From: Escherichia coli
Lineage (GTDB): Bacteria > Pseudomonadota > Gammaproteobacteria > Enterobacterales > Enterobacteriaceae
Strand: one strand, 5' to 3'
Length of the DNA: 64,000 nt
Assembly: GCF_048403405.1 (NCBI RefSeq)
Contig: NZ_CP183129.1
The notes beneath the pieces are model-generated. The model was given only the letters and a program-made list of their open reading frames with translations, did no database searches and was not told where the DNA came from. Below are positions 1,724-55,624 of this stretch, one piece after another; position 1 is the stretch's first letter, and every line of letters starts with the position of its first letter. Made by a program: the position numbers and the translations under genes.

Positions 1724-2764
1724 TTATGGTGCCGGATAAGTATAAACCTGATGTACCGCTTCAATTTCAGCTAATACGTCTTCGCTTAACTCCAGATGCA
1801 AACTTTCGACGTTAGTTTTCAGCTGCTCCATCGTGGTTGCGCCCAGCAGAGTGCTGGCAACAAACGGTTGACGGCGTACAAAAGCGAGCGCCATCTGAGC
1901 AGGATCCAGGCCATGACGTCTGGCGATATCAACATACGCCGCGACGGCTTTTTGCGTTTGCTCACCGCTATAGCGGGTGAAGCGACTAAAGAGCGTATTA
2001 CGTGCGCCAGCGGGTTTTGCACCATTGAGATATTTCCCGGTCAGTGTGCCGAAACCCAGGCACGAATAGGCCAGCAGTTCGACCCCTTCATACTGGCTGA
2101 CTTCTGCCAGACCTACTTCAAAACTGCGGTTTAACAGGCTGTAGGGGTTCTGAATGGTGACAATACGCGGCAGATCGTGTTTGTCCGCCAGATGCAGGTA
2201 GCGCATTACGCCAAATGCAGTTTCGTTCGACACGCCGATATAACGAATTTTTCCCGCGCGTTGGTACTCTGCCAGTGCGTCCAGCGTATCCAGCAGCGAA
2301 ACCGCAGGCGCAGAATCTGTCCAGCTATAACCGAGTTTGCCGAAGCAGTTGGTTGGGCGCTGCGGCCAGTGCACCTGATAGAGATCGAGGTAATCAGTCT
2401 GCAGACGCTTGAGGCTGTCATGCAGCGCTTCGCGGATATTCTTCCGATCCAGCGCCTGATCCGGGCGGATGCCCTTGTCATTATTGCGCGACGGTCCGCT
2501 CACTTTGGAGGCGATAATTAACTTTTCGCGGCTGCCATGTTTCGCCAGCCAGTTGCCGACGTAGGTTTCAGTCAACCCTTGCGTTTCGGGGCGTGGAGGT
2601 ACTGGGTACATTTCGGCAACGTCGATAAGGTTAATGCCCTGAGCGACGGCATAGTCGAGTTGTGCGTGGGCGTCGGCTTCGCTGTTCTGTTCACCAAACG
2701 TCATCGTGCCAAGCCCCAGCGTGCTGACTTCCAGCGAACTGTGGGGTATACGGTGATATTGCAT
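1724..2764 (-). CDS. tas: aldo-keto reductase (NADPH-dependent)
   Basis: 346-aa ORF with aldo/keto reductase family features; position between lplT and ygdR. Confidence 0.85.
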   Translation of the reverse strand: MQYHRIPHSSLEVSTLGLGTMTFGEQNSEADAHAQLDYAVAQGINLIDVAEMYPVPPRPETQGLTETYVGNWLAKHGSREKLIIASKVSGPSRNNDKGIRPDQALDRKNIREALHDSLKRLQTDYLDLYQVHWPQRPTNCFGKLGYSWTDSAPAVSLLDTLDALAEYQRAGKIRYIGVSNETAFGVMRYLHLADKHDLPRIVTIQNPYSLLNRSFEVGLAEVSQYEGVELLAYSCLGFGTLTGKYLNGAKPAGARNTLFSRFTRYSGEQTQKAVAAYVDIARRHGLDPAQMALAFVRRQPFVASTLLGATTMEQLKTNVESLHLELSEDVLAEIEAVHQVYTYPAP

Positions 2765-2871
2765 AGCCGTTTCCTTTTTATAATCACGACATAAGGAATA
2801 TAAAAATGGCAGAGGGAAGGGAAAAGGGAAAGAGAAAAATCTTAAGGCCAGCCGGATGCTGACCTTATTTG

Positions 2872-3090
2872 TTAACGTTCAATAATTTGCGAAACATCAT
2901 CACGGTTAATTTGCATCGCGTTACCTTGCTGATCGTGATAACTAACCAGCCCGGTATCATCATCAATTTCAGGTTTTCCATCGGTCAAAATCATACGGCC
3001 ATCTTTGGTCGCCATGACGTAATCACTGGAACACCCGGAAACAGCAAACGCCAGTCCGACTGCAGAAATTATTACTGCCCATTTTTTCAT
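2872..3090 (-). CDS. ygdR: small lipoprotein, DUF903 family
   Basis: 72-aa ORF with a lipobox (AVSGC); paralogous to the ygdI product at 36542..36772. Confidence 0.8.
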
Positions 3091-3227
3091 CCGGTTATCC
3101 TCATTTGACCCACCTATGATAATAGTCTGTTTATAAACCGACGTTATATATCTTGAAAGCAGGAAAATCTTAAACTGTGAGGGTAACAGGAGTGAGCACG
3201 CCCTCCCGCAGGAGAGCGTACGGAGTA

Positions 3228-3941
3228 TCAGAGCGGATTCTTTTTGTTGCGAATCAGGTTGAGGCTTTCAACCGCAATAGAGAAGAACATCGCAAAGTAG
3301 ATGTAACCTTTCGGTACGTGGATGTCGAAACTTTCCAGAATCAGGGTAAAGCCCACCAGAATCAGGAAAGAGAGCGCCAGCATTTTTACCGAAGGATGGC
3401 GTTCGACAAAATCACCAATCGAGCGCGCGGCAAACATCATCACGCCTACGGCAATCACCACGGCTGCCATCATAATAAACAGGTGATCTGACAGACCCAC
3501 AGCGGTAATCACCGAGTCGAGGCTGAAGATAATATCCAGCAGCATAATCTGCACGATAGCGCCGAGGAATGATGAAACGCGTGTTTTCAGCCCTTCTTCT
3601 TCACCTTCAATGGATTCGTGGATTTCCTTGCTGGCTTTCCAGATAAGGAACAAGCCACCCAGAAGCAGAATCAAATCACGGGCGGAAATTTCCTGGCTGA
3701 ATATTGTAAAAAGCGGATTTGTCAGGCGCGTAACCCAGGCGATTGATGCCAGCAGCGCCAGACGCATAACCATGGCTCCCGCCAATCCCAGACGGCGCGC
3801 ATGAGCACGTTGTGCTGTGGGGAGCTTTGCCACCACCAGAGAAAGAAAAATAATATTGTCGATCCCAAGAACGATCTCCAGCAGCGTCAGCGTACCGAGC
3901 GCAAGCCAGGCGTTAGGATCGGTTATCCATGCAAATAACAT
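3228..3941 (-). CDS. ygdQ: TerC-family integral membrane protein
   Basis: 237-aa hydrophobic ORF; synteny. Confidence 0.8.
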
Positions 3942-4009
3942 CTAAAAAGCCCTGCCAAAAAAATGAAGCGGTAATTATATGCCCGGAAAGCGGCAGGTCA
4001 AAGCGATGG

Positions 4010-4699
4010 CTACTGGATCAGAAAATGACGGGCCAGTAGTGCACTGGTGAAATTCTTCTTCAAATAAAAGCCGCGTGGCAGCGTCAGAATCCGTTCGCCC
4101 CGGGCACCAATGGCTTCGGTAAGCGCTTTCGCATTCGCTGCTTTCGGTCGTATCTGTAAATATTCCCCGTGACGAGCGGTAATCCGCTCAACCTGACCGA
4201 GAACAATCATATCCATTAATTCTTCCCAGTCTTCGCGTAGCTGTCGGTCTTCCTCTTCATTCGGGCTCCACAGCAACGGTGATCCTACGCGACGCTGCGC
4301 TAGCGGGATGCTGCGCTCGCCTTCAACCGGTATCCACAGCACGCGTTTGAGCTTGTGGCGCACGTGGCTGGTTTCCCAGGTCACTCCGCTATTGCCCGTT
4401 AACGGGGCAACACAAACGAATGTTGTTTCCAGCGGACGACCAAGACTATCCACAGGGATAGTTTTAAGTTCCACGCCCAGAGCAGCAAAATCTTGCTCAG
4501 GTTTACTCCCTGCGCTGGCACCTAGCCAGATCTCCAGTAACACGCCAATCCAGCCCTTATCGCGTTTTAAATTCTCTGGCGTAACCAGCCCGGCAAGTGC
4601 CGCCAGTTCTCCCAATGTATAACCAGAAAGTTGTTGTGCTTGCGCTAACAACTGTTCTTCAGTTTCGGGAGGAGAGAGCAGTGGGCGAGGTTGGGACAT
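4010..4699 (-). CDS. mutH: methyl-directed mismatch repair endonuclease MutH
   Basis: 229-aa ORF in the expected position; sequence consistent with MutH. Confidence 0.9.
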
Positions 4700-5383: not shown

Positions 5384-5914
5384 GTGATTGATGACGATGG
5401 CTACCGCCCAAACGTAGGTATCGTGATTTGTAATCGCCAGGGGCAGGTAATGTGGGCCCGGCGATTTGGTCAGCACTCCTGGCAATTTCCGCAAGGCGGA
5501 ATCAACCCCGGAGAATCCGCAGAGCAGGCGATGTACCGTGAATTGTTTGAAGAAGTGGGATTAAGCCGTAAAGACGTTCGAATCCTTGCTTCAACGCGTA
5601 ACTGGTTGCGCTACAAATTACCGAAACGTTTGGTGCGTTGGGACACGAAGCCGGTTTGTATCGGCCAAAAACAAAAATGGTTTCTCTTGCAGCTGGTGAG
5701 CGGCGATGCAGAAATCAATATGCAAACCAGCAGTACACCAGAGTTTGACGGCTGGCGATGGGTAAGTTACTGGTATCCGGTCAGACAGGTGGTGTCATTT
5801 AAACGTGATGTCTACCGTAGGGTAATGAAAGAGTTCGCGAGTGTGGTGATGTCACTGCAGGAAAATACACCAAAACCACAAAACGCATCTGCTTATCGAC
5901 GTAAAAGAGGTTAA
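5384..5914 (+). CDS. rppH: RNA pyrophosphohydrolase (Nudix)
   Basis: 176-aa ORF with a Nudix box ([22 protein letters not shown]); followed closely by ptsP. Confidence 0.9.
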
Positions 5915-5926
5915 GTCACGCCAATT

Positions 5927-8173
5927 ATGCTCACTCGCCTGCGCGAAATAGTCGAAAAGGTAGCCAGCGCACCACGCCTGAATGAGGCGTTAAATATTCT
6001 GGTTACCGACATCTGTCTTGCGATGGATACCGAGGTCTGTTCGGTTTACCTTGCCGATCATGATCGACGTTGTTACTACCTGATGGCGACCCGGGGGCTG
6101 AAAAAACCACGCGGTCGCACTGTAACGCTCGCGTTTGATGAAGGGATCGTCGGCCTGGTTGGCAGGCTGGCGGAACCGATAAACCTTGCAGATGCGCAAA
6201 AGCACCCCAGCTTCAAATACATCCCCTCCGTAAAAGAAGAACGTTTCCGCGCGTTTTTAGGCGTACCAATTATTCAACGTCGCCAGTTGCTTGGTGTACT
6301 GGTGGTACAGCAACGAGAGTTGCGCCAGTATGACGAAAGTGAAGAATCCTTCCTGGTGACGCTTGCCACCCAGATGGCTGCGATTCTTTCTCAGTCGCAG
6401 TTGACTGCCTTGTTTGGGCAATATCGCCAGACGCGAATCCGTGCATTACCGGCAGCGCCTGGTGTAGCGATTGCCGAAGGCTGGCAGGATGCCACGTTAC
6501 CTTTAATGGAACAGGTGTATCAGGCATCAACGCTGGATCCAGCTCTGGAACGCGAACGACTGACCGGGGCGCTGGAAGAAGCGGCAAACGAGTTTCGCCG
6601 CTACAGCAAACGCTTTGCCGCCGGTGCACAAAAAGAAACGGCGGCTATTTTCGATCTTTACTCACACCTGCTTTCGGATACCCGGCTGCGGCGCGAATTG
6701 TTTGCCGAGGTTGATAAAGGCTCGGTGGCAGAGTGGGCGGTAAAAACGGTCATTGAAAAATTTGCCGAACAGTTTGCCGCGCTAAGCGATAACTATCTCA
6801 AAGAGCGGGCTGGCGATTTACGTGCGCTGGGTCAGCGATTGCTGTTTCATCTTGATGACGCTAATCAAGGGCCGAACGCCTGGCCGGAACGTTTCATTCT
6901 GGTGGCAGATGAACTGTCAGCGACAACGCTTGCAGAGCTGCCCCAGGATCGCTTAGTCGGTGTTGTCGTGCGAGATGGCGCAGCCAACTCCCATGCTGCG
7001 ATCATGGTACGTGCGCTGGGGATCCCTACCGTAATGGGCGCGGATATTCAGCCTTCGGTGCTGCATCGTCGGACGTTGATCGTCGATGGTTATCGCGGTG
7101 AATTGCTGGTCGATCCGGAGCCGGTACTGCTGCAAGAATATCAGCGGCTAATTAGTGAAGAGATTGAGCTTAGCCGTCTGGCGGAAGATGACGTCAATTT
7201 ACCCGCCCAGTTAAAAAGCGGCGAGCGCATTAAAGTCATGCTCAATGCCGGTTTAAGCCCGGAACATGAAGAAAAACTGGGCAGCCGTATTGATGGCATC
7301 GGTCTTTATCGCACTGAAATCCCATTCATGCTGCAAAGTGGTTTTCCGTCGGAAGAAGAACAGGTGGCGCAGTATCAGGGGATGCTGCAAATGTTCAATG
7401 ATAAACCCGTCACCTTGCGTACGCTGGATGTCGGAGCAGATAAGCAGCTGCCTTACATGCCGATCAGCGAAGAGAATCCATGCCTGGGTTGGCGTGGGAT
7501 TCGCATTACGCTCGATCAGCCGGAGATCTTCTTGATCCAGGTGCGGGCGATGCTGCGTGCTAATGCCGCTACGGGCAACCTGAATATTCTGTTGCCGATG
7601 GTCACCAGCCTCGATGAAGTTGACGAAGCACGCCGCCTGATTGAACGTGCAGGACGTGAAGTCGAGGAGATGATCGGTTACGAAATTCCCAAACCACGTA
7701 TCGGCATCATGCTGGAAGTGCCGTCAATGGTATTTATGCTGCCGCATCTGGCAAAGCGGGTCGATTTTATCTCTGTTGGCACCAACGATCTGACTCAATA
7801 CATCCTGGCCGTTGATCGCAATAATACCCGGGTGGCGAACATTTATGACAGTCTTCATCCTGCAATGTTACGAGCTCTGGCGATGATCGCCCGGGAAGCG
7901 GAAATACATGGAATCGATCTCCGTTTGTGCGGTGAAATGGCGGGCGATCCCATGTGCGTGGCAATCCTCATTGGGCTTGGGTATCGCCATCTGTCTATGA
8001 ACGGACGTTCTGTAGCGCGCGTAAAATACCTGCTGCGGCGCATTGATTTTGCCGAAGCAGAAAATCTTGCGCAGCGTAGTCTGGAAGCGCAACTGGCGAC
8101 CGAAGTTCGCCATCAGGTTGCAGCCTTTATGGAGCGTCGCGGCATGGGCGGGCTGATTCGCGGAGGGTTATAG
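5927..8173 (+). CDS. ptsP: phosphoenolpyruvate-protein phosphotransferase EI-Ntr (GAF domain + PEP-utilising enzyme)
   Basis: 748-aa ORF; N-terminal GAF-like region followed by Enzyme I domains; synteny with rppH. Confidence 0.9.
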   Translation: MLTRLREIVEKVASAPRLNEALNILVTDICLAMDTEVCSVYLADHDRRCYYLMATRGLKKPRGRTVTLAFDEGIVGLVGRLAEPINLADAQKHPSFKYIPSVKEERFRAFLGVPIIQRRQLLGVLVVQQRELRQYDESEESFLVTLATQMAAILSQSQLTALFGQYRQTRIRALPAAPGVAIAEGWQDATLPLMEQVYQASTLDPALERERLTGALEEAANEFRRYSKRFAAGAQKETAAIFDLYSHLLSDTRLRRELFAEVDKGSVAEWAVKTVIEKFAEQFAALSDNYLKERAGDLRALGQRLLFHLDDANQGPNAWPERFILVADELSATTLAELPQDRLVGVVVRDGAANSHAAIMVRALGIPTVMGADIQPSVLHRRTLIVDGYRGELLVDPEPVLLQEYQRLISEEIELSRLAEDDVNLPAQLKSGERIKVMLNAGLSPEHEEKLGSRIDGIGLYRTEIPFMLQSGFPSEEEQVAQYQGMLQMFNDKPVTLRTLDVGADKQLPYMPISEENPCLGWRGIRITLDQPEIFLIQVRAMLRANAATGNLNILLPMVTSLDEVDEARRLIERAGREVEEMIGYEIPKPRIGIMLEVPSMVFMLPHLAKRVDFISVGTNDLTQYILAVDRNNTRVANIYDSLHPAMLRALAMIAREAEIHGIDLRLCGEMAGDPMCVAILIGLGYRHLSMNGRSVARVKYLLRRIDFAEAENLAQRSLEAQLATEVRHQVAAFMERRGMGGLIRGGL

Positions 8174-32168: not shown

Positions 32169-32245
<77 letters not shown>

Positions 32246-32279
32246 TCACCGTACTGCTTTTACTTCATCAAATTTTGAT

Positions 32280-32356
<77 letters not shown>

Positions 32357-32389
32357 TCACCGTACTGCTTTACTTCATCAAATTTTAAT

Positions 32390-32466
<77 letters not shown>

Positions 32467-36353: not shown

Positions 36354-36541
36354 GGTACTCCTCGGCTTGATGAACCGATCGTGACGCAAAATTCACTTTG
36401 ATACAAGGAGAGTGCTAACCATCAGAATTATCTGGATATCCTGGCGAAGCCGCGTAAGTAACATATGCTGAATAGTGTTAGGCGTTAATTTTAGCCTGTT
36501 AATCAATACTATTAAGATTTATTAATCGCTTTAAGGAGAAG

Positions 36542-36772
36542 ATGATGAAAAAGACTGCCGCAATTATTTCTGCCTGTATGCTGACTTTTGCCCTGAGCGC
36601 CTGTTCCGGTTCGAACTATGTGATGCACACCAATGACGGACGTACCATCGTCTCTGACGGCAAACCACAGACTGATAACGATACCGGTATGATTTCGTAT
36701 AAAGACGCTAATGGCAACAAACAGCAGATCAACCGTACTGACGTGAAAGAGATGGTCGAACTGGATCAGTAA
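36542..36772 (+). CDS. ygdI: small lipoprotein, DUF903 family (paralog of ygdR)
   Basis: 76-aa ORF with lipobox (LSAC); clearly similar to the product of 2872..3090. Confidence 0.8.
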
Positions 36773-36788
36773 TTCGCGATCGCAAGGT

Positions 36789-36994
36789 AAAAAAAAGCAC
36801 CGCAATTAGGCGGTGCTACATTAATCACTATGGACAGACAGGGTAAATGTACAGGAAGTGAAAAAAGGTAGCTTTGCTACCATGGTCTGAATCGCAGACC
36901 AATTGCAAACACAACAACACAACATCACAACCGTAAGCCAAAAGTTCACCAGAACACGCATTCCGATAAAACTTTTCGTTCCGGCTCAGGAAGT
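36789..36994 (-). ncRNA. gcvB: GcvB small regulatory RNA (GT-rich target-binding region, intrinsic terminator)
   Basis: Reverse complement reads ACTTCCTGAGCCGGAACG...GTTGTGATGTTGTGTTGTTGTGTTTGCAATTGG...GCACCGCCTAATTGCGGTGCTTTTTTTT, which matches gcvB as I remember it; divergent from gcvA. Confidence 0.85.
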
Positions 36995-55213: not shown

Positions 55214-55580
55214 GTCGACAGGGAGTCAGACAACGAAGTGAACATCAGGATGATGACACTTCTGAAGGACACACCAGGATGGTGTTTCAGGGAAAGGCTT
55301 CTGGATGAAGCGAAGAGGATGACGCAGGACGCGTTAAAGGACACCTCCAGGATGGAGAATGAGAACCGGTCAGGATGATTCGGTGGGTCAGGAAGGCCAG
55401 GGACACTTCAGGATGAAGTATCACATCGGGGTGGTGTGAGCAGGAAGCAATAGTTCAGGATGAACGATTGGCCGCAAGGCCAGAGGAAAAGTTGTCAAGG
55501 ATGAGCAGGGAGCAACAAAAGTAGCTGGAATGCTGCGAAACGAACCGGGAGCACTGTGAATACAGTGCTCCCTTTTTTTA
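55214..55580 (+). ncRNA. csrB: CsrB regulatory RNA (CsrA-sequestering; many GGA motifs; strong intrinsic terminator)
   Basis: Starts GTCGACAGGGAGTCAGACAACG...; roughly 18 CAGGA(U/A)G-type GGA motifs counted by eye; ends with hairpin gggagcactgtgaatacagtgctccc plus T8. Confidence 0.9.
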
Positions 55581-55624
55581 TTCCTGCTATCCTTCGCGGC
55601 AGTTTTTCTTATTGAGGTTGCTTT

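Follow-up and report, generated by a model that had tools for sequence, protein, structure and literature searches.

YgdI and YgdR of Escherichia coli: two diverged DUF903 lipoproteins that may offer one outer-membrane activity to different stress regulons

The 64,000 nucleotides of Escherichia coli DNA analysed in this study (contig NZ_CP183129.1, hereafter the window) are ordinary E. coli chromosome, and ygdI and ygdR, the two small genes that concern me here, are annotated core genes that lie 33.4 kb apart (Table 1). An earlier note on this DNA had described two such open reading frames about 33 kb from each other, and both are found, ygdI on the plus strand and ygdR on the minus strand. 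The DNA around both loci is 100% identical to several complete E. coli genomes, for instance that of strain 4621 (NZ_CP103479.1), and in these identical genomes RefSeq names ygdI 'YgdI/YgdR family lipoprotein' and ygdR 'lipoprotein YgdR'. The ygdI locus is present in 5425 and the ygdR locus in 5424 of 5426 complete E. coli genomes.

The start of ygdI needs a comment. The list of open reading frames holds a frame of 76 codons (36542..36772, plus strand), RefSeq a gene of 75 amino acids from 36545 onwards. The frame opens with ATGATG (36542-36547), whereas Salmonella reads AAGATG, so that the second ATG alone is conserved. I take 36545 as the start, because Salmonella has AAG in place of the upstream ATG and because the Shine-Dalgarno sequence AAGGAG is spaced 6 nt from the second one. 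The start given for ygdI in the earlier note, 36542, thus needs a small correction of 3 bases. The 76-residue form is used by some older annotations, for example in the O157:H7 numbering of the lipobox as LSAC21. Both proteins begin with MKK and a hydrophobic stretch, followed at residues 17-20 by the lipobox that had been claimed for each of them, LSAC in YgdI and VSGC in YgdR, both of which fit the pattern [LVI][ASTVI][GAS]C.

Table 1. Positions in the window of the two genes, their signals and their neighbours.
Feature	Position	Strand	Remarks	Source
ygdI CDS	36545..36772	+	75 aa + stop	ORF list, RefSeq annotation, Salmonella comparison
ygdR CDS	2872..3090	-	72 aa + stop	ORF list, RefSeq 'lipoprotein YgdR'
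ygdI Shine-Dalgarno AAGGAG	36533..36538	+	6 nt 5' of the ATG at 36545; invariant between E. coli and Salmonella	
ygdR Shine-Dalgarno GAGGA	3098..3102	-	7 nt 5' of the ATG; kept in Salmonella	
ygdI lipobox L-S-A-C	36593..36604	+	Cys20 codon 36602-36604, Ser at +2	translation
ygdR lipobox V-S-G-C	3031..3042	-	Cys20 codon 3033-3031, Ser at +2	translation
YgdI DUF903 domain (small Sm-like beta-barrel)	36614..36760	+		
YgdR DUF903 domain	2878..3024	-	residues 23-71	Pfam PF06004, E=1.7e-24
Candidate ygdI -10 element TATGCT (sigma-S type)	36464..36469	+	in block conserved with Salmonella	
Candidate Rcs site TAAGATTTTCCTG upstream of ygdR	3160..3172	-	in block conserved with Salmonella; one base shorter than the RcsAB box	
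gcvB small RNA	36789..36994	-	convergent with ygdI	Rfam RF00022, 199 bits, E=1e-46
gcvB terminator hairpin	36796..36817	-	stem conserved in Salmonella	terminator scan
Terminator-like hairpin with T-run	2843..2867	-	just past the ygdR stop, ahead of tas	terminator scan
ygdQ (TerC family)	3228..3941		flanks ygdR	
tas	1724..2764		flanks ygdR	

The neighbours had also been named correctly, as ygdI adjoins the small RNA gene gcvB, which is recognised by Rfam, and ygdR adjoins ygdQ. Both gene orders are found in Salmonella too, as csdA-ygdI-gcvB-gcvA and ygdQ-ygdR-tas. The 3' end of gcvB lies 16 nt past the ygdI stop codon, and the gcvB hairpin is the only strong hairpin after ygdI (36770-36820). 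Read on the plus strand, this hairpin has an A-run ahead of its stem and ACATTAAT after it, and no T-run follows. A terminator of ygdI's own with a T-run was not found between 36770 and 36820, and since the gene has none there, its transcription may run antisense into gcvB. The small RNA gene gcvB shares its regulation with the glycine-cleavage (one-carbon) system. Transposon insertions in ygdI were reported to confer a fitness gain in trimethoprim and sulfamethoxazole (PMC8767339). As ygdI abuts gcvB, and gcvB is tied to the one-carbon system, I suspect that this phenotype is a neighbour effect on gcvB, and such effects are a concern for the published phenotypes of ygdI insertions. Across ten genomic contexts of DUF903 genes no neighbouring gene recurs; the gene is a solitary one, separated from both neighbours by intergenic gaps, and because no neighbour is common to the ten contexts, guilt by association is uninformative for this family. 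Elsewhere the window carries the CsrB RNA (55223-55582; Rfam, 383 bits) and, on the minus strand, a tandem of three identical tRNA genes (32172-32466), which from their place on the E. coli map are probably the metZWV cluster.

YgdI and YgdR align over their whole length, as the earlier note had it, with 43 of 72 residues identical (60%), 75% positives, one gap of a single residue and an E-value of 1e-31 (BLASTP). The shared motif that had been written out for the two proteins is correct too, except that its 'CSxxxY' part requires the one-residue gap in YgdR. The 19-residue signal peptides are 63% identical. From the lipobox cysteine onwards the alignment has 31 identities in 53 residues (58%) and scores 157 with BLOSUM62 in global mode, while 2000 shuffled controls gave a mean score of -15 (sd 10, z=17) and a mean identity of 22%, with a maximum of 49%. 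A similarity due to the signal peptides alone is therefore rejected, as the mature domains by themselves reach z=17. The paralogy of ygdI and ygdR is already known, and is stated in the family's own name.

The two genes have diverged far. In the codon alignment 60% of the nucleotides are identical, third positions only 37.5%, and the same codon is used at 46% of the residues that are identical between the proteins. Synonymous sites thus approach saturation, and the duplication is old, because so few third positions agree. A recent duplication or gene conversion was considered and rejected, as the third positions are 37.5% identical and both the flanks and the upstream regions of the two genes are unrelated. 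Exactly two DUF903 copies are present; a tblastn search detected no third one within the window. Salmonella has a third chromosomal paralog, STM0080 (3923-4186 of locus L016), beside fixX and a gene for an MFS transporter, and a gene of this type, 75-76% identical, occurs in only three of the 5426 complete E. coli genomes. In a neighbour-joining tree of 55 columns, which is indicative only, YgdR-type and YgdI-type proteins from different families of the Enterobacterales form separate clades; the YgdR clade takes in a Rouxiella sequence, and on the YgdI side both plasmid types group with those of Enterobacter and Erwinia. Halopseudomonas and Niveibacterium, the latter in my view a betaproteobacterium, supply more remote members of the family, as does a metagenome contig with faint cytochrome c matches in the neighbouring genes. 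A Halopseudomonas sabulinigri MAG (L003) carries a chromosomal tandem pair of DUF903 genes (5543-5761 and 6001-6219), 30 of 72 residues being identical (42%). To judge from these sequences, diverged pairs of paralogs recur in the family through independent duplications.

The assignment of both products to DUF903, and the names ygdI and ygdR, had been proposed from the letters of the sequence and agree with the RefSeq names. Pfam PF06004 scores 83.9 bits for YgdI and 85.9 bits for YgdR against a curated cut-off of 27, and NCBIfam NF033216, 'YgdI/YgdR family lipoprotein', scores 113.2 and 105.9 bits against a cut-off of 42. The window carries the reference genes of the family, its name-giving members, so that there is no difference to describe, and the common plan of a signal peptide, a lipobox and a barrel of about 50 residues is that of both genes. 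A search of 1.84 billion cluster representatives (E<=0.001) returned 150 proteins; most full-length relatives have 67-80 residues, a signal peptide, a lipobox and one domain. Three candidates for multi-domain relatives from phmmer, P0260 (791 aa), P0149 (627 aa) and P0166 (591 aa), look like unrelated repeat proteins and were set aside; they have five or six matched stretches each and share a hairpin-like DANG/DxxG motif, and their matches to YgdI are probably compositional. P0260 repeats a unit 'LVDANG...Y.D..GN.HY', which resembles the hairpin of strands 3 and 4 in DUF903, and P0149 and P0166 look like unrelated Ig- or FN3-type repeats.

The fold is well documented. YgdR itself is represented by an NMR structure of a single chain (2jn0) and by 3fif, both named 'lipoprotein ygdR', and close relatives by 2ra2 (E=2.5e-29), 5cai and 3bdu, as well as 2rd1, 2rb6 and 2k57. 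Entry 2ra2 is labelled as a Salmonella protein (PMC5437024). Crystal or NMR structures, available for YgdI orthologues and for YgdR itself, have been public since 2007. They are placed in SCOP family b.38.1.6 (10.1101/140376). The AF2 model (pLDDT 90.9) is a single Sm-like small beta-barrel of about 50 residues directly after the cysteine, and it lacks the N-terminal helix of Sm proteins. DUF903 thus has its small beta-barrel in common with Hfq and the Sm/LSm proteins (SCOP superfamily b.38.1, Sm-like). However, identity to these is 6-12%, the N-terminal helix is missing, and whereas Hfq and Sm/LSm proteins bind RNA in the cytoplasm or nucleus, DUF903 proteins are exported and lipid-anchored. 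I would not file DUF903 as a Sm/Hfq protein, as the likeness appears to be one of fold and not of function. The conserved positions of the family are mostly turn-formers (Asp-Gly, Gly-Lys-Pro, Asp-x-x-Thr-Gly and Asp-x-x-Gly). Since the conserved residues are these fold-defining glycine, proline and aspartate turns, and no catalytic-looking constellation is seen among them, YgdI and YgdR are probably not enzymes.

Among 58 diverse members of the family the lipobox cysteine is invariant, the tether from this cysteine to the aromatic residue of strand 1 has two to four residues in all 58, and the residue at +2 is S, A, G, T or R, and in none of them D. In E. coli a serine at +2, rather than an aspartate, directs a lipoprotein to the outer membrane via the Lol system. 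From sequence and the established pathway, YgdI and YgdR would be exported by their Sec signal peptide, lipidated at the lipobox cysteine by Lgt, LspA and Lnt, and delivered to the outer membrane by LolCDE, LolA and LolB, because the residue at +2 is serine and not aspartate. For YgdR this location is a prediction on the +2 rule; His-tagged YgdI has been located to the outer membrane and, after H2O2, was enriched in vesicles (PMC8284480), and the label 'verified lipoprotein' has been used (PMC8767339). The mature proteins have 53-56 residues and are acidic, with pI 4.7 and net charge -3 for YgdI and pI 4.2 and net charge -6 for YgdR. A single barrel on so short a tether would be held flush against the outer membrane and would not reach across the periplasm, so that any partner is expected there and not in the peptidoglycan layer.

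YgdI and YgdR have been recorded repeatedly, in omics tables or as tools, and in line with the earlier note, which gave no function for either gene, I found no experiment on their function or binding partner in the searchable literature. Both proteins are seen in the O157:H7 proteome (PMC3210124). The Salmonella YgdI is a small protein controlled by sigma-S (PMC5437024). The gene depends strongly on RpoS, also in E. coli, and in Citrobacter rodentium a cpxRA mutation lowers it about 4.6-fold (log2 -2.19; PMC6153362), whereas for ygdR an induction through Rcs on damage to the cell wall is noted (PMC5105897). A LolCDE inhibitor raises ygdI 25-53 fold and ygdR 8-12 fold (PMC5105897), both genes increase after acid shift and cathelicidin treatment, and deletion of ygdI leaves acid resistance unchanged (PMC2676305). 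In these respects the pair resembles other lipoproteins of the RpoS and Rcs regulons, namely OsmB, OsmE, Slp, YbaY and MliC, which are likewise small, monocistronic, induced by envelope or stationary-phase stress, located in the outer membrane or vesicles, and found in the same induction tables (PMC5105897). However, their folds and families are unrelated to DUF903, and the target of MliC is c-type lysozyme.

The upstream regions of ygdI and ygdR are unrelated to each other, but either one is conserved in front of the orthologous gene of Salmonella. In the alignment with Salmonella the block CTCACAGTTTAAGATTTTCCTGCTT ahead of ygdR hardly varies, and it contains the candidate Rcs site. This site comes close to the RcsAB box, the consensus of which I take to be TAAGAATATTCCTA. 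In Salmonella the region upstream of ygdR (L015, about 410-470, corresponding to 3112-3135 of the window) is longer by an insertion of 26 bp, through which the conserved block AGACTATTATCAGA with the likely -10 element is present twice; for the first of the two copies the distance to the conserved TTAAGATTTT box is 49 nt, as in E. coli. Upstream of ygdI a consensus scan of the plus strand gave no sigma-70 site, and the best candidate for a -10 element is TATGCT. Another candidate for a sigma-S -10 element, TACTATTAA at 36507-36515, was dropped, as it is not conserved in Salmonella.

From these observations I would read ygdI and ygdR as genes for a stress-induced, membrane-proximal binding module that contacts a component of the outer membrane, either a protein or the membrane surface, so that the cell would raise the level of such a barrel under envelope stress. 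Two copies would have been retained as they are wired to different stress regulons, ygdI to RpoS and Cpx and ygdR to Rcs, and because of this wiring the pair looks most like a case of regulatory subfunctionalisation, with one biochemical activity under two controls. This split is drawn from omics tables of different organisms and conditions, and the responses to Lol inhibition overlap. The descriptive core of my reading I consider close to certain. The package as a whole, lipid-anchored outer-membrane barrels in two regulons that act as a binding module, I hold to be somewhat on the probable side. The binding-module mechanism by itself is more tentative and falls a little short of probable, as it is an argument by elimination from the fold, the length of the tether and the lack of catalytic-looking residues.

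Alternatively, the two genes may simply back each other up, performing the same task under the same conditions and being kept for dosage or robustness. The mature domains, with their 58% identity and their common motif and architecture, are consistent with this, as is the induction of both genes by the LolCDE inhibitor, acid shift and cathelicidin. However, the lineages have been apart to near synonymous saturation while nearly every E. coli genome (about 5425 of 5426) and Salmonella as well kept both genes, their upstream regions are unrelated and separately conserved, the literature places them in different regulons, and their net charges differ (-3 vs -6). I consider full redundancy unlikely, and prefer regulatory subfunctionalisation.

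A second alternative takes its cue from the fold. The Sm-like fold often forms rings, and by analogy YgdI and YgdR may function as oligomers; the paralogs, alone or together, would then assemble edge to edge into hexamers or heptamers like those of Hfq and Sm on the periplasmic side of the outer membrane. Such a ring, and not the single barrel, would do the work, as a plug, a scaffold or a ligand-binding pore, and two paralogs would allow mixed rings. The crystal entries 2ra2, 5cai, 3bdu and 3fif hold 6, 6, 7 and 8 chains, respectively, but the number of chains in a PDB entry is no assembly, the NMR structure of YgdR (2jn0) has one chain, and the Sm-fold helix at the N-terminus is absent. A linker-joined homodimer, modelled with AF2 from a paired alignment, reached a pTM of 0.50, with lower pLDDT of the domains and no confident interface, a value that speaks neither for nor against oligomers. 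The recurrence of diverged pairs, in the Halopseudomonas tandem and in tandems on small plasmids (pSL269small; the PTU-E3 plasmid, 10.1101/2023.01.12.523727), would suit mixed rings. However, these pairs stem from independent duplications, with the plasmid types on the YgdI side and the Halopseudomonas pair elsewhere in the tree, and many plasmids and genomes have a single copy. A ring as the functional unit is in my view distinctly unlikely, and the single barrel of the preferred reading is retained.

The relatives of ygdI and ygdR on plasmids lead to a third alternative. By tblastn, DUF903 genes occur on 381 PLSDB plasmid records, 278 of which are typed as mobilizable, with 185 records from Enterobacter, 67 from Pantoea, 47 from Klebsiella, 23 from Salmonella and 16 from Serratia. 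Of 25 evenly sampled records 15 are plasmids of at most 5.2 kb, and on ColE1-type plasmids of 2.5-5 kb DUF903 genes are the main recognisable cargo, as single or as diverged tandem copies. Plasmid pEho7-6 (NZ_CP066114.1, 2,495 bp) encodes only Rop, a hypothetical protein of 72 aa and a DUF903 lipoprotein of 75 aa (163-390 of locus L011). Plasmid pSL269small (AP024920.1, 4,096 bp, MOBP) has tandem DUF903 genes (1866-2099 and 2121-2348 of locus L012), its other genes being unannotated in the record, and a relative of 5.2 kb (L013) carries a DUF903 gene (4207-4434) together with qnrB19. A Col440I plasmid of 4,448 bp (PTU-E3) was published as carrying 'two YgdI/YgdR family lipoproteins', without comment (10.1101/2023.01.12.523727). 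Because such tiny multicopy plasmids carry these relatives as nearly their sole recognisable cargo, the domain may well confer a selectable and measurable benefit. This hint at a selectable envelope function is the sole lead of its kind in the analysis. Short lipoproteins are also found among the colicin lysis and MbeD/Exc proteins of mobilizable ColE1-type plasmids of 2-7 kb, sometimes beside mob genes. The MbeD proteins act in entry exclusion, the lysis proteins in colicin systems. However, the plasmid DUF903 proteins match only PF06004-type sequences, and no colicin gene stands alongside.

In this third alternative DUF903 proteins would neutralise enzymes or toxins of external origin that do their damage in the periplasm (lysozyme-like muramidases, colicins, or T6SS effectors against cell wall or membrane, for example), after the model of MliC, PliC and orphan immunity proteins, and extra copies would spread on small plasmids by shielding their host. 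Apart from the plasmid cargo, this agrees with the finding that a block of Lol induces ygdI and ygdR along with mliC and ivy, the genes of lysozyme inhibitors (PMC5105897), with a survey of Serratia in which a DUF903 cluster is among the families correlated with T6SS presence (PMC12165300), and with the several types of paralogs within the Enterobacterales in the neighbour-joining tree. However, no effector or toxin gene adjoins DUF903 in the ten contexts examined, YgdI is conserved at 80-93% across the Enterobacteriaceae while immunity proteins matched to effectors are usually more variable, and a tether of two to four residues holds the barrel against the outer membrane and out of reach of the peptidoglycan that a muramidase attacks. 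Membership in a defence or phage family was rejected as well: no PADLOC defence model matched at E<=1, and PHROGs gave only weak matches from residue 1 onwards, at the level of the signal peptide and to families of unknown function, with the mature domain not covered. Six records labelled as phage that contain DUF903 (matches H14-H19 and H45-H49) are misfiled Salmonella contigs or unannotated fragments of 1.7-2.8 kb, and are most likely host DNA and not phage genes; in one of them, OR845532.1, the encoded YgdR is 90% identical to that of E. coli. I regard a protective inhibitor as quite improbable. The same holds for its wider form, in which DUF903 is a mobile, selectable module for envelope protection at the inner face of the outer membrane (as inhibitor, immunity-like protein or exclusion factor) and ygdI and ygdR are its domesticated versions; this too I would call improbable.

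Lastly, that the resemblance is due to chance or to spurious open reading frames, with only signal-peptide-like N-termini in common, has the small size of the frames for it and nothing else, and is already refuted by the alignment of the mature domains (z=17), HMM scores about three times the cut-offs, the solved structures and the detection of both proteins by mass spectrometry, leaving it a negligible chance.

With lipid-anchored barrels in two stress regulons as the preferred reading, ygdI and ygdR are expressed core genes of E. coli and Salmonella that are induced by stress and encode outer-membrane lipoproteins; their structures are solved, and a functional study is the main gap. If the protection module were nevertheless true, it would explain why tiny ColE1-type plasmids of Enterobacter, Klebsiella, Salmonella and Serratia carry DUF903 genes as cargo, and the chromosomal ygdI and ygdR would be the stress-regulated form of the activity encoded on these plasmids. 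Functional work on the family could be guided by the tether, which would confine a partner to the outer membrane, by the ten contexts without a common neighbour, and by the presence of the domain as plasmid cargo.
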